Below, in pieces: positions 3,159-53,121 of a stretch of DNA of 64,000 nucleotides. Positions within the stretch are counted from its first letter, which is position 1. Each line of letters starts with the position of its first letter. The notes beneath the pieces are model-generated. The model was not told the DNA's origin. It searched no databases and worked only from the letters and a program-made list of their open reading frames with translations. The DNA comes from a virus. Lineage: Duplodnaviria > Caudoviricetes. The stretch spans positions 64,001 to 128,000 of the IMG/VR virus record IMGVR_UViG_3300033061_001635. One strand, written 5' to 3'. The translations under genes were made by a program, and so were the position numbers.

Positions 3159-3160
3159 AT

Positions 3161-34600: not shown

Positions 34601-35129
34601 GAACAGTTAATACTCTATCGTTATAATCTCTAATAGTTAAAGCATTAGATGATTGTATTACTTTAAATTCTAGAAAAATATCTTTTTTAGACGGACTCGG
34701 CAATGTTAAAGAAACATCTCCATTAGAAGTATCTACTAAATATATAGCACTTATATTATCTAATATTGAGCTATGATCTAATATAATAACATTATTTAAT
34801 AGTGTATCAAAATAACTTTGATTAGCAAAAACATAAAATTCATTACCAGAATCTGGAAAGAAAACTGATTTATTATCATTAGAAGATGATGAAATCGAAT
34901 TTCTTTTAACGGAGATATTACCAGCGCCATCAAATACTATTTCTCCAACACCAGTTTCAAAATATTGATAAGATATATTTCTTGCTATATAAGGTATATA
35001 AAAACCAACATGAGTAGAATTTAATGAATTATAATTTTTCAGTTTTGATAAAATTTTAAAATGATCATTTTCTATAGTAAATGAAAATCCAACATTATCA
35101 AATACTTTTATTATTTTATTATTTATCAT
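31611..35129 (-). CDS. Tail fibre-like protein with two C-terminal fibronectin type III domains
   Basis: Fibre motifs 'YLVDTSNGDVSLTLP', 'GKLGIN...PSTLLHIV', 'RVGVNT'; FN3 'PTAPQNL...LVWTAP..NGG..I..Y...YRFRVAAQNNVGVGPFS' plus a second copy. Confidence 0.75.
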   Translation of the reverse strand: MINNKIIKVFDNVGFSFTIENDHFKILSKLKNYNSLNSTHVGFYIPYIARNISYQYFETGVGEIVFDGAGNISVKRNSISSSSNDNKSVFFPDSGNEFYVFANQSYFDTLLNNVIILDHSSILDNISAIYLVDTSNGDVSLTLPSPSKKDIFLEFKVIQSSNALTIRDYNDRVLTVLVGSNNYIRLVSTGEDWVVLNKISESANIQSLSENDSVSMLSNPVGANYSLQYKYDNTTFGSSQAYWYSNASGQALLLGADNLNDANSVLATSGTNNFLFNKNNASNDFIVYGSGTDNRNLFFSYDGKLGINMPSGVRPSTLLHIVNNLCQSCQEGIRLENRASTYPTNITLYYKPSTNIPVNTTISRLQLAGSNSSGIQTNYGKIEARAVNSSHGSERGAIDLIVVSGSTGVKTLNTSVENTTLGYPNNQISINNNGDITLTNESNQIAVGSSSTTISSQIVTITGVSYLNTINSQNITSPNIYVSSLSQSGLLTISSGKIVNSQITVNRNGSLNLPIPSNKILSTTSNGAVTGIYNIGDYFLTQKDITWNTYSPTSATVCLRQVILANPISSNEFSIDDQIVISLSGANYYRNVDGITLNGGNQITEMLLDTAMPFSDTNDITVKSITKGGYLSLFRYADNETSDSTSHILSIRPNLSTVFNTSKKDTNFEIYGLNDNPALFVQASGSRVGVNTSNLFTVPSGKNVIFQQQSDVPASLTVGGWLYSNNIMVGSANSDVPALVSLGIIESSGIRAKKLQYINLEQIDIAGNVLSSSTSSIINNKVITTFDQGIRAYANTGEPGLYLYPKINNALNGNAYGGISFTTFLDRAKSTASGWSHDTKSKTTINTDTPYILGSLATGTYEVGNITVTGYGYLYSDLTVNGIAYASEIVSENIYLRPAPSINNTGKYIANAFLTLDRNGKIVSQIPTANYTTPTAPQNLAVTQGNGIGNGEVSLVWTAPQSNGGASILTYILEFSLDSGSTWTRLPVGNYTLNRALSNSTHCSILGLSSLNTYRFRVAAQNNVGVGPFSQNSSAVTPASSAPKAVNNIIYTRTFNENNTSSIALSWSASDAGGSAIIGYTIQESTDKGLTWQDYNNTSNLIDDTSETIYGTSSSLDYYYRVSAWNNYNSLNNQSAFAYSYVSGTNPGAPFDTIDSSFSNWDFGMVLFTGVC

Positions 35130-35160: not shown

Positions 35161-38100
35161 TTATGCTGTTCGTCCTATAATACTTTGTTTAGCGGCACTA
35201 TTCATGCCTCCCTCAAACACAGTTTTGTCGTATTGCATATGAGAATCTTGGGAGATATTTTTTGCGTTAATAGAAGTCTGGTCATATATTTTCTGTTCCA
35301 TATTGCCCTTTATGCTGTCTAAACCAATGTGGTGAAGTGATGTCGTTTGCGTAACATTAGCAGATAGTGATGTTGGTATAGCATTCGCGTGTTCTCCAAA
35401 TTGAGCCGTGGCAGTTTGGAACGTGTCGATAGATGATGATAAACTTTTTTGTGCAGAATTAAACTGTTCCGTAAAATTGGCCCCAATTTGCTCTGTGTAT
35501 TCATTGAACTGACCAATAGCATTTGTAACAGCATCCTGTATGGACGATGCTATATTAGCCGTATCTATACTAACATTATTAGATACACCACCAGAGGAAG
35601 ATGCTGTTTGTTTGAGGGTTTGTCCCGCATTAGAAATAGGCGCCAATTGCGCCAGCTGTGAGGTTCCACCAGCAGCAAGATATTTCGGACCGGCTATGCC
35701 TCCATTGGCCAAATAATTAACAATTCCACCTCTATTAAAGTGACCACTATTAATAGCATTAAGGATAGGCATATGCTTTTGGCTAGATTCTCTATTGACT
35801 ACAAATTCTCCCGGAGTCAACATGGCTGGAACATTATCCGTTCCAGATGCTCCAATAAGAGCACCATTATTAGCATAAATTAAGCCACCAGAACTATGAT
35901 CTTTGGCTTTTTCGTCATGCTGTTCTAGTCCTGTTTTATATGCATGGGTAGCTACGTGATTTCCAAGATCTGGAACATATAATGGAGAATGGGTTTGTCC
36001 TATTCTTGAATAATCTCTGAGAGAGTAAGACTTTCTAGGTCCCAAAACCATAGGATCATGTACAACGCGCGTTGTTCCTGGCATATCAGCAAATCTTGAT
36101 TCTACTTGACTATTCTTCATTTTTGTAATTGGTGAGCTCTTCTTAAGGGCGTTTTCTACTTGTTTTTTTGCGATTTCTCTCTGAGCAGCATATGCCATTT
36201 GTTCATCAGGGGTCATTTGAGCAATTTCTTTTGCTGGTTTAAAAGTTTGTTCGCTAAATTTTGTTACAACATCAGCTCCGGTGACCATATCAGCAGGGGC
36301 GCTTCTACCTGGATGAAGAACTGGGGCAGCTGACTGATTAGGCAATAATTCATTACTTAATTGAGATGTTAATGAGTCATCGAATAGGCTCTTAGAATTA
36401 TCTATCAAAGACTTATCTACCTTACTTTTTACTACATAAGCTTCGCCTCCGGTGGCCACATACGAATCTCTCGCATAAATAACCGGAACTTGTGGTGCGT
36501 CATGATGAAATGATCCTACGCTTCCGTGTCCAGCTCCTCCTCTATTGATATCCGAGGCATTTTCTGCCATTCTGGCTATAGCAGCATCTCTCATAGCTGA
36601 CTGTGGAATTGGTTCACTAGCGCCAAGATTACCGGTATTTCTAAATTTATTGTTAGGATCAAGATGCCAATCTCCACTTGTTCCGGAATGAATGTCGGTT
36701 GTTTCTGATCCCATATGTGCAAATGCAGCATCTCTTGGAGACATTCCGTGAGGAACAGCCGTTTCAGAGGCTATTCTAGCTGCTGCTATCGCAGCATCGC
36801 CTGAAGTTATCTGTATAGCTCTTCCAGTTTGAGCCATAGTCTCTGAACCAATTCCTTTTCCAATCCCCTCAACAGCTGATCCTGCGAGTCTTCTTACTCC
36901 TTGTGCAGCCTGATCTACATGAGTAAGTCCTACTTCAGTTGCGGCGCCAATCGGATCGGCAACTTTTCCAAGATTAGAAAAACCAGCACCTATTCTAGCT
37001 CCTCCTAGTGCTCCTACACCAGCAACCATAGCGGCCTGATTGGCAAGTGCGCCTGTGCCAACTTCTGCTGGTCCTTCTCTGAATTTTGTTCCATCAGCAT
37101 ATGTTAATGTTGTTGTTGGTTCTAACTCAGATTCTGGTAATACAACATGAGCCAAACCTTGTCCCATAAATATGGCTGCTCTCTCTGGTAAATTCAATAA
37201 AGTTCTACCCTGATTATCATAATATTCTTTGGATTGATCAAAATAATTACCAACCATACTTTCTGTTCTAGCTTCTGATACCGGCTTTTCTCCCGCCCTT
37301 TCCCCATAATTTCTTTGATAATGTAGACCAGCAGTAACGTCAGCGCCACTGGCCCCTCCCATAAACTGAGCAGTTCCTGATGCCAATCTATCTGCCTCTA
37401 ATTGTTCACCCATAAACCTTTCGGTCATTTGTCCTAGCACACCAGCAGAATCATACGATGACAATGCATCATTTGATCTTTGTTCTTTGTCTGATTTGCC
37501 TCCTTTAGCTAGATAATTTACCGGTCCTCCTTTACTATATCCAAATGGTCTAGTCAAATATGCTTGTCTATCATCCATTTGTCCAAATGGTCTTGTTAGA
37601 TATAATTCTTTTTGACGTTGATAAATCTGGCGTTCTTCTTTTTGACTTTGGTAAATCTGGCGTTCTTCATCTGTAATTATTCCATCTTTATTTAGATCTT
37701 CATCTTTGTCAATATTAGTTCCTGCTTTGCCACCATCGGCTAAATAATTTATCTTACCTCCTTTACTTTTATTGATAGAATGTAATAATCCCAAATTCTC
37801 CTTTGTTGACTTTGCATTAACAACAAACTCACCAGGGGTCAGCATCGCAGGAACAGTATCGGTTCCTTTTGGTGAAAAATCAATTAATTGTCCATTTTCA
37901 GCATATATCAATCCTCCGCTAGCTCTTCTGGCTGGTTTTCTGACCTTGGCTTGGTCTTTAGATTGAGATCCAAATAATCTGCCAATAGAGTCAGCAGCAA
38001 GTCCTGCCAAAGCTCCTGTTGTGCCATATTTTTTAGCAAAATTAACTGCACTGCCCAACATAGATTTTGGAGTTTGGGTCTGGAATGGTTGATCATCTGC

Positions 38101-41100
38101 ATAGCCCATGGTGCGATTGTATTGCTTTAATGCTCTGTTATATGATGGATTGTCTGTTGGTTTTTGACGCAAAGACGCCGAAACAGCAGCCTCTTCTTCA
38201 ACAAAAGCCTTTTGCATTGATTCAACTATAGATGGCTCAATAGGCTTAGAGGTTCCTCTAGTAGCTTGGCGAGCCCTAATGTATTCATCAAATGACCTGG
38301 CTCTATCAGCAGCACCACTAACTAATGGAGCATACTCTTTTGGTAGATTTTTTACTACTCCAGGAGTTAATAATCCAGCATCTTCTAATGCTCCTATGGC
38401 ATCAGAGGCTGCATGAAATCCTTCATGATTTAATGCAAAAGCATCATCTGCTAATTTTATATTTATTTGTCCACCAATACCAACACCTTCATCTAGAACA
38501 TCTGGCATAAAGTTTCCTCTCGGTTTTAGTCCCGGAGTGACTTCCGCATTATTTTTAGACTTTTCTACAAACTCAACTATTCTTTTTGCTAAAAACTTTT
38601 CTCCTTGAGAAGTAAGTTTGTATTGTCCACTAGTTGTTCGTCCAGATGATTTAAGATCTAACATTTCTGGTTCCATGGCCTTGGCTGCCCTGGCATTTAA
38701 TGTAGCAGAGTCTCCTCCTCCAAAACCATATTCTGTGCCCCGCATGGGTTGAGCAGACATCGCAGTTTTCTTAACCGACTCAACCACAGATTTGCCCGCT
38801 TTTCTAGTTTGCTGGTCTATGCTCTCCCATAGCCTCGCTTCTTCTGCGTCATTGAGCTTTTCAGTTATATTGTATCTGGATTCATCTAAAGCTTGCTTCA
38901 TATCTCTGTCTATAGCTGATTCTGCTTTAGCTTGTTCTGTTGCTCTTTGTCTTTGTGATTTTTGTCCACCAAGAATACCTTGTCCTCTACCACTTAATTG
39001 TTCAGCAGTTCTTGCGCTATTTGCCATGGAAACTATTCCAGACGTTATTTGAATAAGATCAATAGCGTCTTGAGGAGTTGATTCTCTCTTCATAACTCGT
39101 CCAGCAATATCGGGAACTTTTCTAAGAGATGCTCCAGCGGTAACTACTCCAACAGGAGTAAGCATACTAGCGGCAGTAACTCCAATAGCTGTTACATCTC
39201 CTGGTTCGGATGTTCTTAAATAGTTTGTTCCGTCACTAAATAATACATTACCATTTTTATCAGCATATTGTATAGGTCCATGCTTCTGAATCATTTCCTG
39301 CAAATCTTGATCTTTTTGAATTCTGTCTAAAGTTTGAACAGAGAGTGCTCCGGTTCCTCCTTGAGAAAAAATTATAGGAGGAACACCACCACTATCTTTC
39401 CATAAAGGATTTGTTGTCTGAGAATCTAAAGGAGGTAATATTTCTGCATCTGTTAGTGGACCAGCCAACATAGGATCTACGCCAAGCGACACAGCATCTG
39501 CTTTAGTTAACTTAGTTTTTGTTTTAGTCTCTTTAGATGTCTCTCTAGAAGCTTCAAATCTGTCTCTGGCTGATAATCTAGCAACATTTTTGCCGTCCGC
39601 AGCAATTTCCGTACCAGATGTGTGTCTTTCAGATCCGTCAAGTTTAAATCCTGTTGCGTAGTCTAGTAGTCCTGACATAAAATCAGAAACCGCTGCATCT
39701 CTTTCTTTAGTTCTTTTTGTTCTATCTGAGCCAACCATTTCTGGCGGAAGTGTGGAGTCAAATAGTTCTGAACCAAATAGCTTAGGTTTATCGGCACCAT
39801 ATTTTTTAAATAAATCTCCAGCTTTTTTAGCTTCAAAATAATCTTCAGCATTTTTATAAGATTCGCCAGCCCAGCGTTCTCCGTCTGGCTTATTAACGCC
39901 TCTTCCAAGTCCTATCGGATTTGACCCAGCACTGGCCCTGCCAGTAGAACCAAACTCAACCTGAGCATGTCTTAATTGCTGTAGTCGTTTCTCTCTTTCT
40001 TTATCGCTTATACCCTCTTCTTGAGAATGTTGTCTATATACGTCTATAATTTTTTTGCCTTCGTCTATAGCAAATTGTACTTTTCTTGCTGACTCTTGTG
40101 CTGTTGCTGTTCTGGAGGAAGTTGCCTGCTGAGCAACAGCAGCCGTTTGGGCTTCTTGATTGGCTGTTGGCTGAGTTGTAGTTGGCGATAAGGGTTCTTG
40201 TGTATTAACAGGTTGTGATTTTGTTGTATTAACCGGTGAAGTTCCGGAAGATGTATTAAGTGGTTTGCCATCTTTGTCCAGACCCATAGTAAATAATTTC
40301 TGTTGCGCTATCTGACGAGCCATGGCAGCCGTATTGTTAGGATCATTAGCCAAAGTAACCCAGTCCTTTGTTGCAAATTTACTAAAATCTGCATCTCCTA
40401 TATCATCGCCTGTTGTTCCATCTGCTTTTGGATATTTTCCTGTTGTAGTAGAAATAGTTGGTTTAGTAACAGCAGCCATCTGTTGATTTGTCTGTGTTTT
40501 TGCTAATTGGCCTGATGAAGAATTAAGCATGCCACCAGAGGGGTTTGGTAATAATAATTCAGTATTAGGATTAATAGTATTTGGAACATTTTTATAAGGT
40601 GGAGGCAGAATCAAATCAGCAACATTTTGAGTTGATCTTGATCCTTCCATTTTAAACATCTTACCTCTTGGAGATGTCCCATCAGGATAATATAACATTC
40701 CTGATTTTAGTAGTGATTTTTCTTTTCTCTCTCTGATTTCTGGTCTGAATCTAGATAAGTAGGCTTGTTGTCTTTCGTATCTTATTTGTCCTTTAGCTCT
40801 GTCTAGCATTTCTTTTCTTGTGTTAATGCCGCTAGATTTAGTTGTCTTATGTAATGATCTTAGATTTTGATACTCTGTTTCTTCCTCTTCTGTTCTAGAT
40901 TTTGATCCTTTGAGCCATAAACTTTTTCTTCTACTATATTGTTTACCCATGCCCAATTTGAATTCCTTCATGTCTATTGCATCATCTTTGTTCAAATCAA
41001 AATCAGAAAAATATTTAGTAAATTCTTTTTTATCTAGTAAATTATTTTTGTTTTTATCAAACTGTGTAAAGTCAGATACTAATCCTACTTTGTCAAAATA

Positions 41101-44100
41101 TCCAGAATTAATAGACTGTAATAATGGTAAGTGTTTTTGTGTAGACTTAGAATTGATAACAAACTCTCCAGGACTCAACATAGCAGGAACAGTATCCGTG
41201 CCCTTAGGCTTGAAATCAATAAGTTTTCCATTACTAGCATATATTAATCCTCCAGATGATCTGGCTACAGGAGGAGCAGCAACAGCCACCCCAGGATTTA
41301 CTATGTTGTTACCAGCAGCATCCTTTCCTATGTTCGCATCCTTCATATTTCCTTCAACACTTGCTCTTAAATCATCAATACTAATACGTAAATTATCATT
41401 AGAATCTTTTAGTATAGATTGTGATTCCGCTAATTCGCCCTGTCCCTTTGTCGCGCTTGAACGTAAACCCACGGACTCTAAATATCTTTCAGCAGCCTTT
41501 TGCATACTAGGGTCTGTTTTACGATCTTGTAAAGCAGCCAATGACTGTTGAACTAATGGATTATTGGCCATTCCACTTTCTATAGCCATTTGTTTCGTTA
41601 ATTGTAGTTGTTGTTTTTGGAAATATTCGGCTACTGCTTGATCAACATCTACTCCCGGTTTTCCTTGATTCTGAGCATATTGATTTCTTATTTGTAGTTC
41701 TTGAGCAGCTTTTACTCCGGGATCTTGTGATAAGGCTAACGTTTCTTTTCTTTGATTAGCAAGAACAGTATTCCCAGCCCTAGTAGCTTCTCTTACATTC
41801 CCTGTTTTAAATAAAGCTTCATTAAATGCTTTTCTAGCATCTCTTTGATTATATGGACTATTTAATCCACCAGAAAGATTTCGTTGCAGTCTAATAAAGC
41901 TTTGATTAAGCTTATCTGCTTCTTCTGGAGTATTGGTCAATAATTGATTAACAAAATTTTGTCTATTATTTTGTAATTCTGAAGTATGTTGAAGATCACT
42001 GAATGCTTTATCTACTAATTCTGTACTATTAGCAAGCATATCTAATGCTTCTCTATTATTTTGCAATTGATCATCTAATTTATTAAGCTGTTCAACATTG
42101 TTACGCAAAGCGTCTTTATCTGTAAGAGTACCCTGTTGTTTTTGTAAAGTATCTCTTTGTTGAGAAAGTCTTATTTGTCTGTTCTGAATGCCTTGGACAG
42201 TTGTTTCTCCGCCAGCTAAATTACTAACATCTCCCATGATTCTATTGCTTTTCTCATTATATGTTTCACCATATCCGCTTAAGATTTCTCTTAAGTTCAT
42301 ATTACCTTCGTTAGAGATGTCTCTCGATTTTCTAAAATAGTTTTGAGCTTCTTTAGCTGCTTTGCTAGCTTCGTTCAGTCCTTTTGCAAATTTATCTAAT
42401 GCTCCTTCTTTAAAAGAAGACAAGTTTTTAACAGAATCTAATAATTTTTTACCAAAATCACCCAAAATATTCGTACCATCTTCTAATTCTTTTCTAAATT
42501 CTGATACTTGCATAGTATTATCAGCATTATTTTCTTTGGCTTTCTTAGCCATGTTTTCAATTTTAGCAGTTGATATCTGTTTCAATTCGTCTTTTTGCTG
42601 TCTAGATAAATTAGGATTATTTTCTATTTCATTTTTAGCAGTATCAACTGCTGCTTTTTTAAGTTCATCTACTCCTGAGCCAGCACTCTTGTCTAAAACA
42701 GTTGCTATACTTTGTGTAATATTTTTGGGTATATTTTGTTGTAATTGAGCACCACCAATTAATTGTTTTCTAATTCCAGCATCTAATCCCGCTGTGGCAG
42801 ACTCTAATGCTTTAGTAAATTCTTCTTCAGAGTATGCATTAGGATTATCTAGAATATTTTTTTCTCTTAATTTTGGACCAGAAACTTTAGACTCTCCACG
42901 TAATGATGATGCATATTGGGTCGTTGCCTCTACCCTAGCATCAGACTCAAATGATATTTTATTAACAGACTCATTTACTATGTCTGCTATTTTATCAAAA
43001 CTAGCAGCCAATCGTCGTCCAGCTTTATCTGCAAGATCCATAGCTCTTGCTAATTTTGCGCTTTCTTGAGAAGCTTTTGCTAATTCATCATTAGCTAAAA
43101 ATTCATCTTGTGCTGCTTTACCAACGATAGTTTCTTTACCTTGTTCCCCAGCAGACATATATAGAGCTAATTTTTTAGGATCAGATAAAATCATGCCTTT
43201 TAAAGATTCTCTAACTATATTTCCAGCTTCATTACTGGGATCCATGATTTGATCATTACTGAATCCTTTTGAATAAAGTCTTTCTAAATCTCCGTATCCA
43301 GTATTGGCTATTTTTTGGTAATTTTCTAATTCTTTTTGAGCATCAACGCTTGCCTCTTCCGTACCATAAGAGCCTTTTTTGGATTTTGCAACTGTTACTG
43401 GATCAAGGTCTTGGTAGTATGGATTCATGCCAACGCCAATTTCTCCAATGCCTAATAATATTCCTCTACCAAAATCTGTCCAATTACGATCATTTTCTGC
43501 TTTATTTTTTCCAGCTGTTGCTGTATCTGCTGTACTTTCTATAGCGGTATCTGTTAAGGCCTTAACCGACGATGCTGTTTTTGCTCTCAAATCAACATTA
43601 TTAACATCCTTACTTAATTTTTCCAAAGCATTTGATAGACTATCACTAGCAGCAGATAATTTGTCATTTAATAAAGATCTTGTCATTTCTTGGGCAGCTT
43701 TTTTCGCTGTTCCAGAAAAATCAAATGCAGCATCAGCACCAGCATACAATGCTGTGCCTATAGCAGCAGCGGCCCCTAGCATAGGATTGATAGCGGCTAA
43801 TTGTGCTGATGTTGTTAAGCCTACAGATAGTGTTGTTGCTGCTTTGTCTATTCTAGCCCCTGCATCTGCTGCTTTTATTTTTCCCTTATCTGTTTTAGTA
43901 TCAAATAATGCTGATGATATATTTTGGCCTTGCCCAGCAACCAACCCCGCGGCCAACCCAACGTCACCAAGTCCTCGCTGCATACTTCTTCCTAAATTAC
44001 CAGTAAAATATCTTTCTCTAAATGCTCTATTAATAGGACTATTTCTAGTATCCATTAATCCAGCAGCCCCAACGCCTCGCTCTCCTCTCATTTTAGCTAA

Positions 44101-47100: not shown

Positions 47101-50100
47101 AAGTCTAATTTCTCCACCAGTAACCAGAGTATCATCAAAATCAAAAACCATTTCTTTAAATGGGCCGGTCGAGTTATTGTTTGGGAATATTTCTCCATAC
47201 TTTTTAAGTAGTCCGCCGCCTGATAATTTCTGAACCATCTTATCATTCTTTGGTTCTGGTATTCCATATTGTGCTCTAAAATATTTTTGAAATTCTTCAA
47301 CAGCCTTGCCTCTACTATTACTATCTATTGTTCTTTTAACTTCTGTTGGAATATTAGGATCAATACCAAATATTTTTGCCGCTTTAGGTCCGATGCCCAT
47401 TGGAAAGTCGATTGGACGAGTTCTTAAAGCATCGTCCAATATGGTAGCATCTGCTGATCCAAAAATTTGTTCTAGTAAAGCCCCTTCAATATTTCCTTGT
47501 CCTAATGTTTCTCTTTGTTTTTTAGTTAATTCTTTAGGAGTAATACCAAGAAGTTTTGATGCTCCTTGTACTATTTCTGCTGTTTGTCCACTAAGATAAT
47601 CAATAACATTTTGGAATTCTGTTGGTAATCCTCTTTGTACTATGGAGGCATTTATTGACCTGTCTTTGCCGGACGAATCGGTGCCAAGATTCCAAGTTTC
47701 TGGACCTAATAATCCAGTATATCCTAATGGATTTAATCCTACTAAACCTAATTGTGTCGATGACAAAACAGCATTTGTTGTATCTTTTAATGCTGTTGCT
47801 TTTTGAGTTCCTTGTGATTGTTTAAATTTATCTATTAAGTAATCTCTTGTTCTTGTATAGTAAGCTAATTTATCTGCTTTAGTTTCTGGTCTAAATGCAG
47901 AATTCCAATATTTTAATTTGCCACCTTCAGCAGTATCAGATACTGTTTTTCCTGAGAATGGGCCAAAACTTGAATCATTTGGTAATCTTTCAGATCCAAA
48001 TCTTTTTAATATCTCTGTTCCTTGAGCTGGTAATATTCCAGAAGATTTTTTAACAGCTGTTTCTGTAGCTACTTTTGCTAAAATAGCTTGTTGTATAGCG
48101 GAAGATGGACCAGTTGGAGATGATGATGAATCAGTATCAAATCTTAGTCCATATTTTGCAGGATCGCTGGTTGCTAACTGTCTAAGAAGGCGATATGGTT
48201 CAAATGATTTTTTAGTTTCTAGTTTTTTCTTTTTATCTTTTAAGGACCGATAAAGCTCTAGTTGAGCAGCATACTCTTTGTCTGTCTCTGCTTTTTTATT
48301 ATCTGCGCGAGTTATTCCTGTTGCGGCCAACTGCTGGTCTATACCGGATACTTCTTCTTTGTATGCTGCTTCTGCTTGTTCTATTAGTGTTGGCAATACG
48401 TTGGATCTGTTCTGTAGTTGAACCATATTGTTTTTTAATAATGAAAATACCGAGGGGGAAACAACTTGTTGAAGACCCTCTAGATTTCCATTTAATACTA
48501 AATCCCTAACTTGTGTTCCACTTATTCCGCCTGTTCTTTTTAGATTAGAGACTCCATATCCTGCTTTTTTATATTTCTCCATTTGCTTTTCTGTCTTGTC
48601 TGCAACAAAAGCCATGCTTCCTTCACCAGCTAATGTAATCTGTCTACGACCATCCTTTTCTCCCATATCAAAAGCTAAAGGAACACTCATATCTCCAAAT
48701 GCCTTTGGTAGAACAGAGGCCCCCTTAGATCCGAATCCTGCTTTGGCCAGTGCTAATCTAAAATCTTTATCAAATACTGCTGTTCTATAATTTTCAGAAT
48801 CTACAGCCTCATCGGATCCGACTAATGCTATAAAGTCTTCATAGGGTATGCCAGCAGCTTTGGCTGCTTCCATCATAGATTCGTGACCTACTGTTGTTGG
48901 AGCAAATCCTCCCCAAGTTAATCCTATTTTTTTCTTAGTTGCTTCTACTAGTTCATTTCCTGTTTTACGACGTAATCCACCGTCGTCTTTTCGTCCTAAT
49001 ACTACTGATTTAGAACCTATTCTATCTTCTAATAAAGCTTCTTCTTTTGCCGTGTCTAATGGAGCCCCTGTTGTGCTACCAGCTGTTCTACCAAATAATC
49101 CAACACCACTAACGTCCCTCATTGTTCTTTGTTTAAGAATTCTATCTTTTTCTTCTTTTGTAGTAGACGATAATGTATAAGCTCTATCTACTTCCTGTAA
49201 CATACCCTCTAACTTATCCTGAGAAACTGTGCTTGTAAGCAACATAACTTCTGAAGCTTTAGTTATATCTTCTGGGGTTAGGATAGGGAAGCGATTTGTT
49301 TGTCGTAGTGTTCCGTTATCGTTGGATCCTCTTCCGGTAACAATACTACTTTTACCAGCTCCGGCCACGCCATATAGTGCTTTTAGAGAGTTTAAACTTT
49401 TTTCTTTTCTGGCTTTGATGGCTAGATCAGTTAAATACTCCGTATAATTTCTTGGTCCATCAACACCGGCTTTTTTCATAGCCTGTTCAATAACTTGGGC
49501 ATTTGCTGGATCATTAATTACATCAAAATCAATATATCCTAAATTTCTTGTAACCTTACCACCATCTGTATATTGTTGTCTTTGAATTCCAGCACTACCT
49601 AATAATTCATTTAGAGTAGAGTCTAATATTCCCTCCATATTAGAATCTAGCATTGGTCGTTTTTGAATTAGAGTTGTTAAAAATTCTTCTTTACCATTAT
49701 CTTCTGCTTTATTTATAACATCTTGCTTAACTCCGCCCTTTAATAGTAAGTCAGTAATTTTAGGATTTATTGGTCGATATTCACGAGCATTTTTCTTTTT
49801 TTCAGCTTCAAAATATAATGCTGATCCTTCTTTAGAAACTTCAGGATTGTCCGATCTTCCCGTTCTTATCGTATCTCTTCTTAAATTGCTTAATACGCTA
49901 TTAAGCATGTTGTTTTTATAGCTACGACCATATACAACATCGGCGCTATTATATCCGCCATCTTTCTCTGTTAGAGCATCAAAAGCATCAGCCAATCCAT
50001 CATTATCACCAGAGAATAATTGACTTACTCTATTTCTATATTGATCAAAAGCGCCTGATGATTGTGTCCTTATTGAATTTAATAATTGATGTGTTAATTC

Positions 50101-53100
50101 ATGATATAATGTATTTTTTTCTTGATTTGGGAAATATCTGGTGCTACTTAAACCCACTGTTCCTCGTCCGGTAGTTTCGGTAATTTCTTTTTTAGCCGCC
50201 ATTGCTGCTTTTCTAGCATAAGCTTGTTTATCTTTCACTTTAGATATTTGCATAGTTAATGCAGATTTTTCATCATAAGCCTTTTTAAATGCAGCATCAT
50301 CAATTGAAAAAGATCCATCATCAAAAGTTTTTGTTGGCGTTTTCATTATCTTCTTAATTTCTTTTTCTTTTTCCTCCCATAATTTTTGATAGCCATATAG
50401 ATCTTGTTCATCGGCCGTGGTGAACCCATACTGAGATAAATCTAACTTATCAAAATCTCTAGCGCCATAAGGATTTGCATAAAAAGTACCACGAGAACTA
50501 ACGTTTTGTCCTACTCCACCAAAATCAATATTTTGTGGTAAAACTTTAGACAAATCCTGTTCTGGTAAACCTATATATTTAGCAAAATTTGCTAGATCGC
50601 CCACTAAATCATTTCGTCTAATTTTAGTCTTAAACAAACTTTCAAATTTTTTGCGATCAAAAGCTTGTGACTTAAAATGTTCAGCAACTGCATTCTGATC
50701 AACATTTATTCTTTCATCTTTTGGATATTGATCCCACGCTAATGATACTTGTTCATCATTTAACTTCTTTTCCATTTCTTTAACATAAGCGTTCGTAATG
50801 CGCTTGGGAAATTTGGTTTGTCCTGTACCGAATGGGGTTGATTCTGCTTTTCCTCCGGCCATGAATCTTTGAATTCTTCCTCCAAGATTTTTTTTATCAA
50901 ACTTTTTTGGATCTTGTTCAATTAATCTTTTATTCTGCTTACCCTCTGGTAATGACAGATACTCTGCCTTAGTTATAGTTTCTGCTCGCTTCGGTCCTGT
51001 ACCAGAATATGAAAAACCTAATCCTTTATCTATTAAGTTCTGTTTTAGATTATCGTCAACAAAAAGCGGTCTCCCACTACGTTCTTTATCTGTCTGTTGA
51101 CTATATCCTTTAGTAAAATTCTCTGTTACATTTTTACCTTTTGTATATTGTGTTTCAGTTAATTTTTTTGCTTCAAGAGCAAGATTTTTTTTCCATTTTT
51201 GGTTACTTCTCATTTCAAATGTATCAACTCCGACAAGTCTACTACTAGTATCATATGCCGAAGTTTTTGGTGTGAACTTTACTACTGGACTGTCTCCGTC
51301 GTAAACATGGTCAACAACCACATTTAATGGCTCTGGGGCTTTTCCTCCACCGCCAAATCTTTGTCTTTTATTTGATTTTCCTGCTCTTATACTTCCACCA
51401 CCCCCATACTTATTCATATTATGAAGATTATCTGATCCTATAGTTTCAACAGCTTTCTTTCTTATAACAAATTCTCCTGGCTCTAACATTGCTGGTACAG
51501 TATCTCCACTGCCAGTACCAGGAACAACACCACCTCGTGCAAATTTTCTTATAACTCCGCCATTAGCTTTACCATCTGGTCCTCTTTTAACTCCTGTGGT
51601 AAATCCTGTAGTAAATTCTGTTAATGCTTTAAATCCCTTAAATGCTGCAAGAACTGCTAATGCTGGAAGAATTCCTTTAACGGCGTCTGCTACTTTTATC
51701 AAACCGCTAGTTAAAGATAATGCACCTCTAACTAAACTCTGAAATCCTTTAGATTGACCTATCTCACGAAATAGTGAGAAAAATTCTTCACGAACTTTGC
51801 TTATTTGATTTGCTAAACTAAGTTGTGCTGTAGCAGCATCTTTAGCCAGAGATGCCTGTCCTTGTTGTGCAACCTTTAATGCCTGCTGGGTCACAGTGAA
51901 TTGTTGAATAAGAGGAATAACTTTGCCAATTTGACGAAATCCACCAAGTTCTTCAACTATTCTGGAAAAATCTAAACTTCTAGGATCTATCTTGCCTAGT
52001 CCTTTGCTTAATAATTCAACGGCTTTATATGCTCCAACAAATTTACCTTCTGTGTCTGTTAGATTAACACCAAACTCTTTTAGCGCATCTATTGTTGTTC
52101 CTCTTTGAACACGAGTAAATATTGTCCGCAATCCAGTAGCAATAGTTTCAGCACTTTCACGACTAGTTGCTCTAATACTAGTAAATACCGAAATGAATTC
52201 ATTTAAAGCGTCTTTTCCTTCGCTTACTCCTTTGCTCGCAGTAGCAAATACGCTACCTGTTCTTTGTACAGCCGTAATGATGTCGCTGGATTCTACTGCG
52301 AATCTTGCGGCAACAGCATTAACTGCTCCTAATGATGCCTCCAAATCATTAGCGCTAATACCAAACTGTCTCATTATAGCAATACTGCCTTCGACAGTCT
52401 CATTCATATTATCGAATGATGGAGCTAAGCTACTAAGAGCTAAAGCCTTTAGAGCTTTCTCAGTTTCTCTAGCACTCAAACCAGCCTGAGCTAATGTTGA
52501 TGCTACTTGAGTTAACTCTTTAGAACTAACACCAAATTCTACAGCTAAATTAGTAATTTGAGATTGCAGTTTGGATAATCCAGCAGCAGATTCACCAGTA
52601 ACTTGTTGTAGCTTTACAAGTTCTTTATCATAATCAATAAAAGCTTGTATACCATTATTTATACTATTGGTTACGCCATATATAACGCTTGTAACAGCAC
52701 TAAATGCAACGAATCTTCTAACTGCTAAACCAGCCTGTTTACCGAATTCCTGCATCTCTGTTGCGGCATTTTGCAATCCTCCAGATGTTGATGAGGATAC
52801 TTTATTTAATTTAGCAATTGCTGACGAAGTTTGATTAATTTGTTGAGGGACATTGTTAATTTTAACAGAATTTACGCTATTACCAAAAGCCTTTATTGCT
52901 GATGTGGCAGCATTGGCTGATTTGACAGTTGAGGCAAAATTAGCATTTAGAACTTTTAATGAAGACGATAATGCTGCAACATTTTTTGATGCTGCCGGAT
53001 CAAGTTTAAACTGTACGTTTGCATTAAGAGTGCCAAGATCTTTTTTAATCTGAGCAGCTATTTGCTTAACGTTTGTTGGACCTTTAAGATTCAACTGTGC

Positions 53101-53121
53101 TGTTAGGTTAAAAGTTGCCAT
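35161..53121 (-). CDS. Giant (5986 aa) tail tape measure protein with multiple embedded enzymatic cassettes
   Basis: TP901-like TMP core at about aa 150-420 ('FIDYDKELVKLQQVTG...FGVSSKEL...LAQAG'); position after tube and chaperone genes; Ala/Gln/Lys-rich helical tracts; repeated DTVPAML.PGEFV motif typical of TMPs. Confidence 0.9.
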   Translation of the reverse strand: MATFNLTAQLNLKGPTNVKQIAAQIKKDLGTLNANVQFKLDPAASKNVAALSSSLKVLNANFASTVKSANAATSAIKAFGNSVNSVKINNVPQQINQTSSAIAKLNKVSSSTSGGLQNAATEMQEFGKQAGLAVRRFVAFSAVTSVIYGVTNSINNGIQAFIDYDKELVKLQQVTGESAAGLSKLQSQITNLAVEFGVSSKELTQVASTLAQAGLSARETEKALKALALSSLAPSFDNMNETVEGSIAIMRQFGISANDLEASLGAVNAVAARFAVESSDIITAVQRTGSVFATASKGVSEGKDALNEFISVFTSIRATSRESAETIATGLRTIFTRVQRGTTIDALKEFGVNLTDTEGKFVGAYKAVELLSKGLGKIDPRSLDFSRIVEELGGFRQIGKVIPLIQQFTVTQQALKVAQQGQASLAKDAATAQLSLANQISKVREEFFSLFREIGQSKGFQSLVRGALSLTSGLIKVADAVKGILPALAVLAAFKGFKALTEFTTGFTTGVKRGPDGKANGGVIRKFARGGVVPGTGSGDTVPAMLEPGEFVIRKKAVETIGSDNLHNMNKYGGGGSIRAGKSNKRQRFGGGGKAPEPLNVVVDHVYDGDSPVVKFTPKTSAYDTSSRLVGVDTFEMRSNQKWKKNLALEAKKLTETQYTKGKNVTENFTKGYSQQTDKERSGRPLFVDDNLKQNLIDKGLGFSYSGTGPKRAETITKAEYLSLPEGKQNKRLIEQDPKKFDKKNLGGRIQRFMAGGKAESTPFGTGQTKFPKRITNAYVKEMEKKLNDEQVSLAWDQYPKDERINVDQNAVAEHFKSQAFDRKKFESLFKTKIRRNDLVGDLANFAKYIGLPEQDLSKVLPQNIDFGGVGQNVSSRGTFYANPYGARDFDKLDLSQYGFTTADEQDLYGYQKLWEEKEKEIKKIMKTPTKTFDDGSFSIDDAAFKKAYDEKSALTMQISKVKDKQAYARKAAMAAKKEITETTGRGTVGLSSTRYFPNQEKNTLYHELTHQLLNSIRTQSSGAFDQYRNRVSQLFSGDNDGLADAFDALTEKDGGYNSADVVYGRSYKNNMLNSVLSNLRRDTIRTGRSDNPEVSKEGSALYFEAEKKKNAREYRPINPKITDLLLKGGVKQDVINKAEDNGKEEFLTTLIQKRPMLDSNMEGILDSTLNELLGSAGIQRQQYTDGGKVTRNLGYIDFDVINDPANAQVIEQAMKKAGVDGPRNYTEYLTDLAIKARKEKSLNSLKALYGVAGAGKSSIVTGRGSNDNGTLRQTNRFPILTPEDITKASEVMLLTSTVSQDKLEGMLQEVDRAYTLSSTTKEEKDRILKQRTMRDVSGVGLFGRTAGSTTGAPLDTAKEEALLEDRIGSKSVVLGRKDDGGLRRKTGNELVEATKKKIGLTWGGFAPTTVGHESMMEAAKAAGIPYEDFIALVGSDEAVDSENYRTAVFDKDFRLALAKAGFGSKGASVLPKAFGDMSVPLAFDMGEKDGRRQITLAGEGSMAFVADKTEKQMEKYKKAGYGVSNLKRTGGISGTQVRDLVLNGNLEGLQQVVSPSVFSLLKNNMVQLQNRSNVLPTLIEQAEAAYKEEVSGIDQQLAATGITRADNKKAETDKEYAAQLELYRSLKDKKKKLETKKSFEPYRLLRQLATSDPAKYGLRFDTDSSSSPTGPSSAIQQAILAKVATETAVKKSSGILPAQGTEILKRFGSERLPNDSSFGPFSGKTVSDTAEGGKLKYWNSAFRPETKADKLAYYTRTRDYLIDKFKQSQGTQKATALKDTTNAVLSSTQLGLVGLNPLGYTGLLGPETWNLGTDSSGKDRSINASIVQRGLPTEFQNVIDYLSGQTAEIVQGASKLLGITPKELTKKQRETLGQGNIEGALLEQIFGSADATILDDALRTRPIDFPMGIGPKAAKIFGIDPNIPTEVKRTIDSNSRGKAVEEFQKYFRAQYGIPEPKNDKMVQKLSGGGLLKKYGEIFPNNNSTGPFKEMVFDFDDTLVTGGEIRLPDGKLDLSRKDDMPLVQEMLKKGKLTPLGQHLSEALKQEPSLIDNVSILSARNPNQTGILAQTLQNLGLPIPESKIRGSNGPQNKKITGYQKMIDDNLETIMRLKGQGHEAIHYTFAKGGKVEEEYKSILASILPKEMLTSDGYLKMPSGQAEPIDFIPGRSLAEKSKSSVMSILLGKSEKAPPEEQTGAFYQGGLMPKVLRHNLEKYKSKLPEDEYKALKQFVDQRILFEGNDDTIKTAGGLHKGVLAHESFHDIQGHLYDNHPEIIDKLHESLLKRKDAVEKWYKDPKNAEWAGPKDYRLEHFFPTATSKSPYSGNFIAEAHDSVKKITKKNNVSQNLFSTLGATQWDLGKNELIPVLLSAAVENNKGAIELLSQAFGESGLNPDFYKTLPKYADGGMALGLEDTDMSSLISSMYGSADSIARTFQGAGLTAGMPERSIGAAGVTGLQKSQEKKPKNYSKIGLRSDGSEITATYFKNNDRQGFVSAKKATGNLFTVGLSKATQGYGPRLYDIVMEAATAAGSMLTSDRNQVSESAKSVWSYYFNNRSDVKKTPLDPSQWTKNHSYLDPKLYGRKETWPPPSDPAWILQSGYNKSADLINSPDVINMNDPKYAEHIKAQQLSFLSRNGGGSIRKFASGGNTGLSSEDTVPALLTPGEFVVNKNAAKKIGYNKLHQLNKADKIQGYNKGGIVGGVQKFAFGGGVDSVLSGLQNITSYLGKTQNITSNRPNSIDTSTIAVDPSILQDTKAFVDTLYDAGDGMKYLNRLLNENKQLSIKAVLDAGNKDLERLKISGASIDKIIEAEKALSNIRNKGLIDVTKRQFLESGFKESSVGKKLGSGATQQKILSLAEKEEQRLIDKRKKAIEADIVSSSKQPIAASDLADQVAQAISSELNDIKTQAFSRATTVATGTQTSTGIKGNITASELKNLNISGNDIQKYISDSMRDRKTLRQMDQQLIATRMEEYKNAGTIRGISVASAEEAKKLAQEEVSKRREAINDLAKMRGERGVGAAGLMDTRNSPINRAFRERYFTGNLGRSMQRGLGDVGLAAGLVAGQGQNISSALFDTKTDKGKIKAADAGARIDKAATTLSVGLTTSAQLAAINPMLGAAAAIGTALYAGADAAFDFSGTAKKAAQEMTRSLLNDKLSAASDSLSNALEKLSKDVNNVDLRAKTASSVKALTDTAIESTADTATAGKNKAENDRNWTDFGRGILLGIGEIGVGMNPYYQDLDPVTVAKSKKGSYGTEEASVDAQKELENYQKIANTGYGDLERLYSKGFSNDQIMDPSNEAGNIVRESLKGMILSDPKKLALYMSAGEQGKETIVGKAAQDEFLANDELAKASQESAKLARAMDLADKAGRRLAASFDKIADIVNESVNKISFESDARVEATTQYASSLRGESKVSGPKLREKNILDNPNAYSEEEFTKALESATAGLDAGIRKQLIGGAQLQQNIPKNITQSIATVLDKSAGSGVDELKKAAVDTAKNEIENNPNLSRQQKDELKQISTAKIENMAKKAKENNADNTMQVSEFRKELEDGTNILGDFGKKLLDSVKNLSSFKEGALDKFAKGLNEASKAAKEAQNYFRKSRDISNEGNMNLREILSGYGETYNEKSNRIMGDVSNLAGGETTVQGIQNRQIRLSQQRDTLQKQQGTLTDKDALRNNVEQLNKLDDQLQNNREALDMLANSTELVDKAFSDLQHTSELQNNRQNFVNQLLTNTPEEADKLNQSFIRLQRNLSGGLNSPYNQRDARKAFNEALFKTGNVREATRAGNTVLANQRKETLALSQDPGVKAAQELQIRNQYAQNQGKPGVDVDQAVAEYFQKQQLQLTKQMAIESGMANNPLVQQSLAALQDRKTDPSMQKAAERYLESVGLRSSATKGQGELAESQSILKDSNDNLRISIDDLRASVEGNMKDANIGKDAAGNNIVNPGVAVAAPPVARSSGGLIYASNGKLIDFKPKGTDTVPAMLSPGEFVINSKSTQKHLPLLQSINSGYFDKVGLVSDFTQFDKNKNNLLDKKEFTKYFSDFDLNKDDAIDMKEFKLGMGKQYSRRKSLWLKGSKSRTEEEETEYQNLRSLHKTTKSSGINTRKEMLDRAKGQIRYERQQAYLSRFRPEIRERKEKSLLKSGMLYYPDGTSPRGKMFKMEGSRSTQNVADLILPPPYKNVPNTINPNTELLLPNPSGGMLNSSSGQLAKTQTNQQMAAVTKPTISTTTGKYPKADGTTGDDIGDADFSKFATKDWVTLANDPNNTAAMARQIAQQKLFTMGLDKDGKPLNTSSGTSPVNTTKSQPVNTQEPLSPTTTQPTANQEAQTAAVAQQATSSRTATAQESARKVQFAIDEGKKIIDVYRQHSQEEGISDKEREKRLQQLRHAQVEFGSTGRASAGSNPIGLGRGVNKPDGERWAGESYKNAEDYFEAKKAGDLFKKYGADKPKLFGSELFDSTLPPEMVGSDRTKRTKERDAAVSDFMSGLLDYATGFKLDGSERHTSGTEIAADGKNVARLSARDRFEASRETSKETKTKTKLTKADAVSLGVDPMLAGPLTDAEILPPLDSQTTNPLWKDSGGVPPIIFSQGGTGALSVQTLDRIQKDQDLQEMIQKHGPIQYADKNGNVLFSDGTNYLRTSEPGDVTAIGVTAASMLTPVGVVTAGASLRKVPDIAGRVMKRESTPQDAIDLIQITSGIVSMANSARTAEQLSGRGQGILGGQKSQRQRATEQAKAESAIDRDMKQALDESRYNITEKLNDAEEARLWESIDQQTRKAGKSVVESVKKTAMSAQPMRGTEYGFGGGDSATLNARAAKAMEPEMLDLKSSGRTTSGQYKLTSQGEKFLAKRIVEFVEKSKNNAEVTPGLKPRGNFMPDVLDEGVGIGGQINIKLADDAFALNHEGFHAASDAIGALEDAGLLTPGVVKNLPKEYAPLVSGAADRARSFDEYIRARQATRGTSKPIEPSIVESMQKAFVEEEAAVSASLRQKPTDNPSYNRALKQYNRTMGYADDQPFQTQTPKSMLGSAVNFAKKYGTTGALAGLAADSIGRLFGSQSKDQAKVRKPARRASGGLIYAENGQLIDFSPKGTDTVPAMLTPGEFVVNAKSTKENLGLLHSINKSKGGKINYLADGGKAGTNIDKDEDLNKDGIITDEERQIYQSQKEERQIYQRQKELYLTRPFGQMDDRQAYLTRPFGYSKGGPVNYLAKGGKSDKEQRSNDALSSYDSAGVLGQMTERFMGEQLEADRLASGTAQFMGGASGADVTAGLHYQRNYGERAGEKPVSEARTESMVGNYFDQSKEYYDNQGRTLLNLPERAAIFMGQGLAHVVLPESELEPTTTLTYADGTKFREGPAEVGTGALANQAAMVAGVGALGGARIGAGFSNLGKVADPIGAATEVGLTHVDQAAQGVRRLAGSAVEGIGKGIGSETMAQTGRAIQITSGDAAIAAARIASETAVPHGMSPRDAAFAHMGSETTDIHSGTSGDWHLDPNNKFRNTGNLGASEPIPQSAMRDAAIARMAENASDINRGGAGHGSVGSFHHDAPQVPVIYARDSYVATGGEAYVVKSKVDKSLIDNSKSLFDDSLTSQLSNELLPNQSAAPVLHPGRSAPADMVTGADVVTKFSEQTFKPAKEIAQMTPDEQMAYAAQREIAKKQVENALKKSSPITKMKNSQVESRFADMPGTTRVVHDPMVLGPRKSYSLRDYSRIGQTHSPLYVPDLGNHVATHAYKTGLEQHDEKAKDHSSGGLIYANNGALIGASGTDNVPAMLTPGEFVVNRESSQKHMPILNAINSGHFNRGGIVNYLANGGIAGPKYLAAGGTSQLAQLAPISNAGQTLKQTASSSGGVSNNVSIDTANIASSIQDAVTNAIGQFNEYTEQIGANFTEQFNSAQKSLSSSIDTFQTATAQFGEHANAIPTSLSANVTQTTSLHHIGLDSIKGNMEQKIYDQTSINAKNISQDSHMQYDKTVFEGGMNSAAKQSIIGRTA
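35660..35900 (-). repeat. TMP linker module copy 5 (SSGGLIYANNG...GTDNVPAMLTPGEFVVN...FNRGG..YLANGG..YLAAGG)
   Basis: Read directly from translation; approximate bounds. Confidence 0.85.
37495..37930 (-). repeat. TMP linker module copy 4 with EF-hand-like loop and two short tandem duplications
   Basis: ASGGLIYAENG...GTDTVPAMLTPGEFVVN...YLADGG; DLNKDGIITDEE; EERQIYQ.QK x2; YLTRPFG x2; YSKGG..YLAKGG. Confidence 0.85.
40960..41270 (-). repeat. TMP linker module copy 3 followed by an EF-hand pair
   Basis: SSGGLIYASNG...GTDTVPAMLSPGEFVIN; then FDKNKNNLLDKKEF and FDLNKDDAIDMKEF. Confidence 0.85.
44990..45225 (-). repeat. TMP linker module copy 2
   Basis: NGGGSIRKFASGG...EDTVPALLTPGEFVVN...YNKGG...KFAFGGG. 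Confidence 0.85.
45290..45730 (-). other. GNAT acetyltransferase-like cassette within TMP
   Basis: 'ATQGYGPRLYDIVME...LTSDRNQVSESAKSVWSY' resembles GNAT motif A and the 'S..A..VW' helix of phage GNATs. Confidence 0.6.
45930..46730 (-). other. Zincin-like (HExxH) cassette within TMP
   Basis: 'GVLAHESFHDIQ' with downstream 'NELI'. Confidence 0.55.
46765..47165 (-). other. HAD-superfamily phosphatase-like cassette within TMP
   Basis: Motif I 'MVFDFDDTLV', motif II 'ILSAR', Lys 'NKK', motif IV 'MIDDN'. Confidence 0.75.
47270..47520 (-). other. PD-(D/E)xK nuclease-like cassette within TMP
   Basis: 'GNIEGALLE...RPIDFP...PTEVKRT'. Confidence 0.4.
48430..48940 (-). other. HIGH-superfamily nucleotidyltransferase (cytidylyl/NMN-adenylyltransferase-like) cassette within TMP
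   Basis: 'IGLTWGGFAPTTVGHESM' (T/HxGH) and 'GISGTQVRDLV' (ISxTxxR). Confidence 0.75.
48970..49400 (-). other. P-loop kinase-like cassette within TMP
   Basis: Walker A 'LYGVAGAGKSS'; lid-like 'RILKQRTMR'. Confidence 0.6.
49590..50840 (-). other. Zincin-like (HExxH) cassette within TMP
   Basis: 'KNTLYHELTHQL' with downstream 'KEEFLT'. Confidence 0.6.
51000..51330 (-). other. Thermonuclease (SNase-like) cassette within TMP
   Basis: 'VDHVYDGDS...RLVGVDTFE...ALEAK...DKERSGRPL...NLIDKGLG' versus canonical DGDT / RL.GIDAPE / D.YGR.L / LV..GLA. Confidence 0.75.
51340..51570 (-). repeat. TMP linker module copy 1
   Basis: ANGGVIRKFARGGVVPGTGSGDTVPAMLEPGEFVIR...KYGGGG...RFGGGG. Confidence 0.85.

Follow-up and report, generated by a model that had tools for sequence, protein, structure and literature searches.

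Here we describe a giant tail tape measure protein (TMP) of 5,986 amino acids (aa), encoded by an uncultured aquatic tailed phage of ~175 kb, in which at least eight enzyme-like modules are set into a conserved tape measure scaffold, with putative active sites whose conservation points to purifying selection. The gene occupies positions 35161-53121 on the minus strand of a 64,000-nucleotide stretch of DNA (hereafter the window), which corresponds to bases 64001-128000 of the 175,133-bp IMG/VR virus record IMGVR_UViG_3300033061_001635, rated complete by CheckV. Comparison with relatives shows that the modules, or cassettes, are inserted, deleted and reordered by recombination exactly at a short [FYL]-A-x-G-G junction. 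We consider it probable, at roughly 0.6, that the TMP serves as a chassis for a variable array of enzymes that enters the host ahead of the phage DNA.

All features below lie on the minus strand and are given in residues of the protein, followed by window positions; residue i begins at position 53121-3(i-1). The open reading frame (ORF) is single and uninterrupted, 5,986 aa plus stop, and the gene is genuine and intact. Records of the identical protein come from three assembly sources (JGI/IMG, Logan and ENA; three contigs). An assembly chimera or annotation artefact might be suspected, given that the source is a metagenomic contig with repeated motifs inside the gene and that aa 4050-5700 are nearly private to this protein and higher in GC content. 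However, the internal repeats share 67-84% identity at the DNA level and no long exact repeat, so that misassembly through them is unlikely; the same architecture is found in hundreds of independently assembled relatives; and the 17,958-nt frame stays open despite a genome GC of ~35%. Because the three sources agree and the repeats are not exact, a chimera is very improbable.

Tape measure scaffold, cassette exchange and junctions

The protein is a TP901-type tail tape measure protein, identified by Pfam and PHROG family matches and by the position of its gene. PF10145 (PhageMin_Tail) matches aa 188-380 with an expectation value (E) of 1.7e-21 and 77.5 bits (cut-off 33.2), and eleven tape-measure PHROG families match within aa 18-600. 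The original prediction, made from the sequence alone, had proposed a TP901-like core at aa 1-520 of a 5,986-aa ORF and a second helical tract further along the chain, and both hold up. The core (51562-53121) is 47-97% identical among the loci compared. The second tract (aa 2713-3949; 41275-44985) is low in proline and aromatic residues. In a crude composition test, aa 1-500 and 2701-3900 proved proline-poor (0-3%, with one block at 4%) and contained mostly 2-8% aromatics, the cassettes being richer, in line with extended helical tracts. Residues 3350-4000 are common to ~90 of 119 relatives and retain ~25% identity to short TMPs of the same clade, while the C-terminal end (aa 5823-5986; 35164-35655) is present in 15-56 of the 119. 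Together with several copies of a punctuation motif described below, the N-terminal core, the second helical tract and the C-terminal end form the scaffold.

Relatives of this TMP are numerous in uncultured phages. Searches limited to proteins of 3,292-10,476 aa returned 203 clusters at E <= 0.001; the best 120 of these 203 span 3,511-7,724 aa, nearly all carry PF10145, and many are encoded on contigs of 145-247 kb. A further 2,179 shorter proteins share the N-terminal core at E <= 1e-30, some of them apparently complete TMPs (~1,960-3,300 aa; contigs of 130-226 kb), and 481 IMG/VR stretches encode a relative. No similar protein or sequence was found in GenBank phages by megablast or tblastn. 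The gene belongs to a very large clade, comprising thousands of uncultured aquatic phages with TMPs of ~1,960-7,720 aa, in which the same scaffold is combined with different modules.

The expectation that related phages would share a conserved scaffold and differ in their cassettes was confirmed by the coverage profile, by the shuffled order of cassettes and by the loss of a cassette in a close relative. The 119 relatives cover aa 1-560, 1190-1650 and 3350-4000 and every punctuation motif almost completely; coverage drops to 25-60% for cassettes B, C, part of F, G, H and I (lettered from the N-terminus), and only 1-4 of the 119 cover most of aa 4050-5050 and 5200-5700. Cassette C precedes the D/E pair here and in three relatives (L006, L012 and L002), and follows it in five others (L019, L022, L003, L004 and L008). 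An exhaustive HMMER search of 1.84 billion representatives with cassette C gave only 42 hits, almost all of them giant TMPs or fragments, in which its position ranged from residue 121 to residue 4,530. The closest comparison is offered by protein P0002, which is 97% identical to the present TMP over aa 1-758 and 94% identical over aa 2642-4203. P0002 lacks cassette C, the gap falling exactly between the two flanking junction motifs; a different cassette replaces I; and past aa 4203 the two proteins are unrelated save for the punctuation motifs. Other relatives show patchwork identities (e.g. 61% beside 89%, or 48% beside 94%), which indicates recombination between TMP genes.

The junction itself is a short sequence, [FYLMW]-x-x-G-G, present in 23 copies against 7.9 +/- 2.8 expected (2,000 shuffles, maximum 19). 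Copies coincide with homology breakpoints at aa 754, 1188, 1974, 2125, 2399, 2636 and 2716. Over the 120 giant relatives the motif has the logo GG-x-[VI]-[QK]-[KR]-[FYL]-A-x-GG-x-V, with a median of ~27 copies per protein and a count that correlates with protein length (r = 0.80, n = 120). When 72 non-redundant TMPs were cut at their junctions, 657 pieces were obtained, falling into 226 clusters, mostly singletons. The families to which the cassettes belong occur almost exclusively in these TMPs.

Junction words also begin the longer punctuation motif of ~60 aa, GG.IYA.NG.L....GTDTVPAMLTPGEFVV....L..L..IN, which includes a PAMLTPGEFVV segment and occurs in five copies here and in one to eight in relatives, as well as in PHROG TMP families outside the clade. 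The first copy, M1 (aa 521-595; 51337-51561), reads GG-x-I-R-K-F-A-x-GG ... D-T-V-P-A-M-L-x-P-G-E-F-V, lies among Gly-rich linkers and has a PHROG TMP match. It is repeated as M2 (aa 2630-2712; 44986-45234), M3 (aa 3950-4012; 41086-41274), M4 (aa 5062-5130; 37732-37938) and M5, which is accompanied by tandem junction motifs (aa 5738-5822; 35656-35910). The motif was modelled, with low confidence, as a beta-hairpin followed by a helix; prediction of a homotrimer scored 0.02, and a profile search against PDB sequences gave nothing solid.

The TMP core was also observed on contigs of GTDB genomes (L106-L123) from lakes and oceans, in metagenome-assembled genomes (MAGs) that span some ten unrelated phyla and bear the labels Alphaproteobacteria, Chitinophagia, Thermoplasmatales, SAR202, Verrucomicrobiales, Flavobacteriales, Saccharibacteria, Gemmataceae, Micavibrio and others. 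These contigs are evidently mis-binned phage contamination, and since the bins span so many phyla, MAG membership gives no indication of the host.

Putative enzymes carried by the tape measure protein

Between the N-terminal core and the second helical tract, the protein carries a series of globular cassettes. Conservation was counted in alignments of 25-86 non-redundant relatives with a minimum identity of 24-36%, and the cassettes were modelled with AlphaFold2 in two blocks, aa 596-1650 from alignment A14 (mean predicted local distance difference test score, pLDDT, 82) and aa 1651-2725 from alignment A15 (mean pLDDT 57). All of the motifs originally listed for this protein are present (SNase, three HExxH, P-loop, HIGH, PD-(D/E)xK-like, HAD, GNAT and EF-hands), and the catalytic residues of cassettes B to I are invariant or nearly so in these relatives. 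The proposal that each cassette adopts the fold named for it fared less evenly. Models were confident for C, D, E and H, partly so for the GNAT module, and low for B, F and G; fold-level evidence supports a nucleotidyltransferase, a P-loop kinase and a GNAT domain, the SNase, HAD and PD-(D/E)xK assignments come from conserved motifs only, and the HExxH modules matched no family.

The most conserved block of cargo is the pair D and E, both modelled at pLDDT ~90. Cassette D (aa 1187-1395; 48937-49563) contains the Walker A motif GVAGAGKS at aa 1251-1258, with K1257, D1285 and D1312 invariant in 86/86 relatives, and a P-loop fold of the kinase type (zeta toxin / PNK-like) was found. Cassette E (aa 1396-1650; 48172-48936) consists of a HIGH-type nucleotidyltransferase with a helical tail. 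Its motifs, TVGH (aa 1410-1413) and ISGTQVR (aa 1533-1539), are kept in 76-80 of 80 relatives at T1410-x-G1412-H1413 and I1533-S1534-x-T1536-x-x-R1539, and a Rossmann-like nucleotidyltransferase fold of the PPAT / NMNAT / TmcAL superfamily was found. A profile search against PDB sequences matched the nucleotidyltransferase to MJ0951 (3gmi; E 0.002), the sole solid match among cassettes C, D+E and F. On the models, D+E is predicted to be a zeta/PNK-like P-loop kinase joined to a nucleotidyltransferase of the NMNAT/PPAT class. The pair resembles NadR in its parts, and by analogy a nucleotide- or NAD-related role is attractive. Stand-alone proteins of near length that combine a P-loop with a nucleotidyltransferase were represented by only three contig fragments. 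In the most divergent relatives, L004 (12122-13600) and L024, the Walker A site reads G-A-A-A-N-R-K-S-S, having lost the Gly before the Lys and retained the Lys and two Ser; here the site may be degenerating or altered.

The third module with a predicted fold is cassette I (aa 2406-2629; 45235-45906), a GNAT-fold module with its core at aa 2465-2605 and the sequence GYGPRLY at aa 2513. The GYGP..LY pattern is kept in 48-51 of 51 relatives, the model reaches a pLDDT of 65-80, and a GNAT fold with the beta4-alpha3 pyrophosphate-binding motif was found. As a side observation, the majority consensus of 13 full-length relatives has a different cassette at this position, marked by Y-H-G-S and G-Y-G-Q-G.

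Two further cassettes are orphan modules with an HExxH motif. Cassette C (aa 766-1186; 49564-50826) contains H1007, E1008 and H1011, which together with a downstream acidic cluster are invariant in 53/53 relatives, and is modelled at pLDDT ~90. No family match was obtained for it with Pfam on relatives (E up to 10), by profile search of PDB sequences or by hhalign to cassette H; ESM Atlas features gave no usable hit, only a faint lead to a cluster with LPD23 in 18% of its members. Cassette H (aa 2127-2405; 45907-46743) has H2257, E2258, H2261, Q2264 and E2362 invariant in 28/28 relatives and a pLDDT of ~85-95, and likewise had no family match with Pfam on relatives at E up to 10. According to hhalign, C and H are unrelated beyond the HExxH itself. 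The models place the motif-bearing helix behind a small sheet, and the only Pfam traces on the HExxH modules are M91 (E 0.02) and M78 (E 0.21), so calling these modules "peptidases" is a guess from the motif.

The remaining cassettes of this region are recognised by their motifs. Cassette B (aa 596-765; 50827-51336) is SNase-like: D608, D610, R628, D633 and E636 are kept in 25/25 relatives and R684 in 24/25, and the SNase residues in B correspond to the equivalents of D21, R35, D40, E43 and R87 (catalytic and Ca-binding). The Pfam SNase match falls below the cut-off (E 0.07 here, 0.008 in L021), a precomputed PF00565 hit exists on one relative's protein, and the model has a pLDDT of 30-53. Cassette F (aa 1651-1968; 47218-48171) has an E...PD...ExK pattern in its C-terminal part, with E1884 in 34/36 relatives, D1905 in 36/36, E/D1927 in 35/36 and K1929 in 35/36 (the residues of the pattern in 31-36 of 36); pLDDT is ~55 around this PD-(D/E)xK pattern, and PDB sequences yielded no match. 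Cassette G (aa 1969-2126; 46744-47217) is a small HAD-like module with DFDDT at aa 1994-1998, S2057 and DD at aa 2102-2103. All relatives (40/40) keep D1994, D1996, T1998, [ST]2057 and D2102-D2103, which would represent HAD motifs I, II and IV; the motif III Lys is unassigned, Pfam gives no hit and pLDDT is low. Fold searches returned no zincin and no match for C, H, F, G or B; the result lists were filled by nucleotidyltransferase and GNAT domains, and for that reason the missing matches are no evidence of new folds.

Beyond the second helical tract lies a pair of EF-hands (40897-41085) with canonical 12-residue loops at aa 4022-4033 and 4042-4053. The EF-hand Pfam match is sub-threshold here and reaches E 2.5e-09 in relatives; the loop pattern occurs four times in the protein (aa 3906, 4022, 4042 and 5142) against 0.55 expected by chance, the copy at aa 3906 lying inside the helical tract. 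The EF-hands are followed by two variable regions. Region 1 (aa 4076-5061; 37939-40896) is partly low-complexity, carries the third HExxH at aa 4899 (38413-38427) and is found in ~1-15 of 119 relatives, 1-4 over most of its length, with the stretch around the HExxH almost unshared. Region 2 (aa 5131-5737; 35911-37731) is Gly/Ala-rich, includes the EF loop at aa 5142 and has a GC of 0.41. Private, partly low-complexity sequence totals ~1,600 residues. Between window positions 36000 and 40000, overlapping these private Gly/Ala-rich regions, GC is 0.41 as against 0.33-0.36 elsewhere in the gene and genome.

Pfam run on 12 cargo regions and on the relatives of B and G gave almost no matches. Other members of the clade carry cargo of other kinds, including a cassette with a glycine-zipper Pfam match and, in some TMPs (P0064 and one member of alignment A3), a significant PF03496 ADP-ribosyltransferase domain (E 7e-10). 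The invariance of the catalytic residues, together with the modelling of C, D, E and H at pLDDT ~85-95, argues that the cassettes are enzymes rather than mere spacers.

Delivery into the host and competing explanations

TMPs lie in the lumen of the tail tube until infection, when they leave it, and muralytic domains are present in some. By extension, the present TMP would fill the tail tube and be expelled ahead of the DNA; its cassettes, non-native or compact while in the tube, would enter the cell as infection begins and refold there into a virion-borne array of host-modifying or counter-defence enzymes. Action in the cytoplasm is indicated by the chemistry of the kinase, nucleotidyltransferase and GNAT, which needs ATP or acetyl-CoA. 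The Gly-rich C-terminal part could act as a membrane conduit, as in other TMPs.

Several points weigh against such delivery. Folded cassettes of 150-420 aa, present in at least three chains, should not fit a lumen of ~4 nm, and unfolded or compact transport with later refolding would therefore be required. The SNase, HAD and PD-(D/E)xK modules are without fold support, with low pLDDT and Pfam matches that are sub-threshold or silent, and the HExxH modules match no peptidase family in Pfam, PDB-sequence or fold searches. Among 140 representative cassette pieces from relatives, Pfam matches at E <= 0.001 were limited to the EF-hand and glycine-zipper families and to three helical matches that look like chance. 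Incorporation of the full-length TMP into virions, its ejection, and the refolding, activity and targets of the cassettes are steps that we infer. We hold more tentatively, at odds somewhat below even, to a more far-reaching version of the delivery model, in which the TMP is a recombining "effector cartridge", with a fixed scaffold, a junction grammar and hundreds of orphan families, seen in TMPs only, that are swapped between phages and injected before the genome. If so, TMP length would be uncoupled from tail length, and cargo made of folded domains would pass the tube in a non-native state.

A different fate for the cassettes is implied if the protein is a polyprotein precursor whose [FYL]-A-x-GG junctions are cleaved, before assembly or in the course of it, by its embedded HExxH modules or by a phage protease. 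The helical parts alone would then measure the tail, and the freed enzymes would either be carried in another part of the virion or serve late, in the cell that makes the virions. Processing of TMPs is known in other phages, and in the present case a strongly enriched motif stands at every cassette boundary and HExxH modules sit inside the protein. Self-processing of polyvalent proteins by their own metallopeptidase domains has, moreover, been proposed by Iyer et al. (PMC5512222). Yet 27 of the 120 giant relatives have no HExxH at all and still keep their junctions, which rules out the HExxH modules as a universal processing protease; no Gly-Gly-type protease (clan CE/C48 or C39) was found in the genome, where the sole protease signal is a weak prohead-protease match; the junction also occurs within the punctuation motif, which looks structural; and none of the cassettes was found as a gene of its own. 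Junction processing is conceivable but unsupported, and we regard the precursor explanation as unlikely.

The TMP might alternatively be just a very long ruler, its cassettes mainly adding length to a tail of 0.5-0.9 micrometres and their enzyme features being relics or serving folding and packing. In model phages it is the TMP that determines how long the tail is, and the Thermus phages P23-45 and P74-26, with TMPs of ~5,000 aa and tails of ~0.8 micrometres, are reportedly regarded as such cases; that most cassettes here have no recognisable family would also fit. The TMP lengths are comparable, but more than half of the present protein consists of globular or variable cassettes. Active-site residues are invariant even though the relatives are only 24-40% identical, the confident models are globular and not helical, TMP length varies about four-fold within one clade whose tail genes are otherwise conserved, and gain or loss of cassettes between near-identical phages is hard to square with a tuned tail length. 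A ruler function for the cassettes is, on this evidence, decidedly improbable. Slightly more doubtful still is the idea that the cassettes act outside the cytoplasm, in the envelope or periplasm, and aid penetration. Known TMP enzyme domains are muralytic, and extracellular action is conceivable for the SNase, the zincin-like modules and the Ca-binding EF-hands. However, the most conserved cargo (the kinase with its adenylyltransferase-class partner), the GNAT and the HAD need ATP or acetyl-CoA and cytoplasmic substrates, and Pfam and PHROG scans of the whole protein gave no lysozyme, transglycosylase or M23 family. Under the delivery model, a rough estimate from volume assigns each residue position (three chains) no less than 0.5 angstrom of tube, compared with 1.5 for a helix, from which a tail of roughly 0.5-0.9 micrometres would be predicted.

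If the cassettes do reach the host, no richer example would be known of a phage that arrives with enzymes already loaded for the first seconds of infection; the vehicle would then be the tail lumen, to which, to our knowledge, only cell-wall enzymes have been attributed until now. The architecture raises the questions of how globular proteins are stored in and passed through a 4-nm tube, whether the "one residue, 1.5 angstrom" ruler rule holds when more than half of a TMP is non-helical, and what a virion-borne kinase/adenylyltransferase, GNAT, HAD and nuclease would do to the host, nucleotide- or NAD-centred immunity being a candidate target. It also reveals a sizeable pool of enzyme families that have been seen in TMPs alone (at least 226 cassette clusters from 72 TMPs, nearly all of them dark to Pfam), and the short junction motif might offer a naturally occurring site at which cargo could be engineered into phage tails.

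Relation to known systems and neighbouring tail genes

Enzyme-bearing TMPs have reportedly been described in mycobacteriophage TM4 and relatives (Rpf-like or peptidase motifs), in T5 (Pb2) and in staphylococcal phages (transglycosylase, M23). The present protein shares with them the PF10145 TMP chassis, a gene within the tail module and globular enzyme domains embedded in the ruler, which would be expected to exit the tail when infection starts. It differs in carrying at least eight cassettes with cytoplasm-type chemistry, where those have one or two muralytic domains, and in its junction and punctuation grammar with clade-wide cassette shuffling. Full-text literature searches found no description of a multi-enzyme TMP.

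The second point of comparison is provided by phage polyvalent proteins, which combine ADP-ribosyltransferases (ARTs), zincins, GNATs, nucleases and kinases (PMC5512222; PMC9503650; PMC7824862). Like them, the TMP is a very large protein with many unrelated effector-type domains, encoded among late genes and with proposed action at the onset of invasion, and a relative carries an ART. The likeness drawn by the original prediction stands as regards a multi-effector combination in a virion-type gene, here at least eight cassettes with conserved catalytic residues within a structural gene. For the hallmark domains of the class, neither the MPTase-type zincin (PF18818) nor LPD domains gave a Pfam hit in the window protein or its relatives at E up to 10, the sole trace being the LPD23 lead noted for cassette C. 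Polyvalent proteins are described as packaged in the head or fused to MuF, portal or virion RNA polymerase, with no mention of tape measure proteins (PMC5512222), and the cassette families found here are, in contrast, essentially private to TMPs. We therefore treat the link to the polyvalent proteins of Iyer et al. as an analogy.

Modular effectors derived from TMPs (Sle1 type) have been reported in contractile injection systems (CIS) of actinobacteria (PMC13277306, PMC11126660). There, too, a TMP-derived module is the loading platform in a tail-like tube and carries an exchangeable functional domain. Those effectors, however, are cargo of bacterial CIS, each with one functional domain at its C-terminus and a partner protein that carries the CIS effector core domain, whereas here many internal cassettes are carried by a phage TMP. 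The present system thus joins the ideas of TMP cargo and polyvalent effectors; what is new is the junction and punctuation grammar, the shuffling of cassettes, the TMP-private families and the four-fold range of TMP length.

The genes around the TMP are those of a tail module. Two genes in the tail-chaperone position lie immediately upstream (302 aa and 97 aa; 53223-54414), their putative function being assigned from position only. The 302-aa protein (53223-54131) has a helical N-terminal half, about six D-x-x-G-[RN]-[LF]-[VI]-D repeats in its C-terminal part and an acidic Pro-rich tail, and had no family hit. The upstream order of ~345 aa, ~100 aa, ~290-300 aa and TMP is kept in L002-L005, with large fn3-bearing tail proteins downstream. 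A tail tube-like protein of 370 aa (55669-56781) was recognised by its ESM Atlas features (score 0.98), which place it with a tail tube cluster, 71% of whose members carry PF18906, and with a cluster of the Phi812 tail tube; this protein had no PDB sequence match. Profile hidden Markov models for PF18906 and for the sheath family PF04984 matched nothing in the genome, so that the tail may be contractile or of another type. The genome's only PF04586 prohead-protease match (59780-59923) is a weak one (S78, E 0.014, below cut-off) and falls within a 250-aa ORF (59285-60037), which is likely, judging from this match, to encode the head-maturation protease.

Downstream of the TMP, a 1,172-aa tail protein (31611-35129) carries fn3 domains (PF00041, E 1.5e-12) and matches a PHROG minor tail protein family, and equivalents follow the TMP in relatives. 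More giant ORFs of 2,542, 2,163 and 1,461 aa lie further downstream in the same tail module, also on the minus strand (3776-28239), PHROG being silent on the latter two; these may be fibre or baseplate giants. In L004, the neighbouring giants contain RCC1, Laminin_G, fn3 and FG-GAP repeats.

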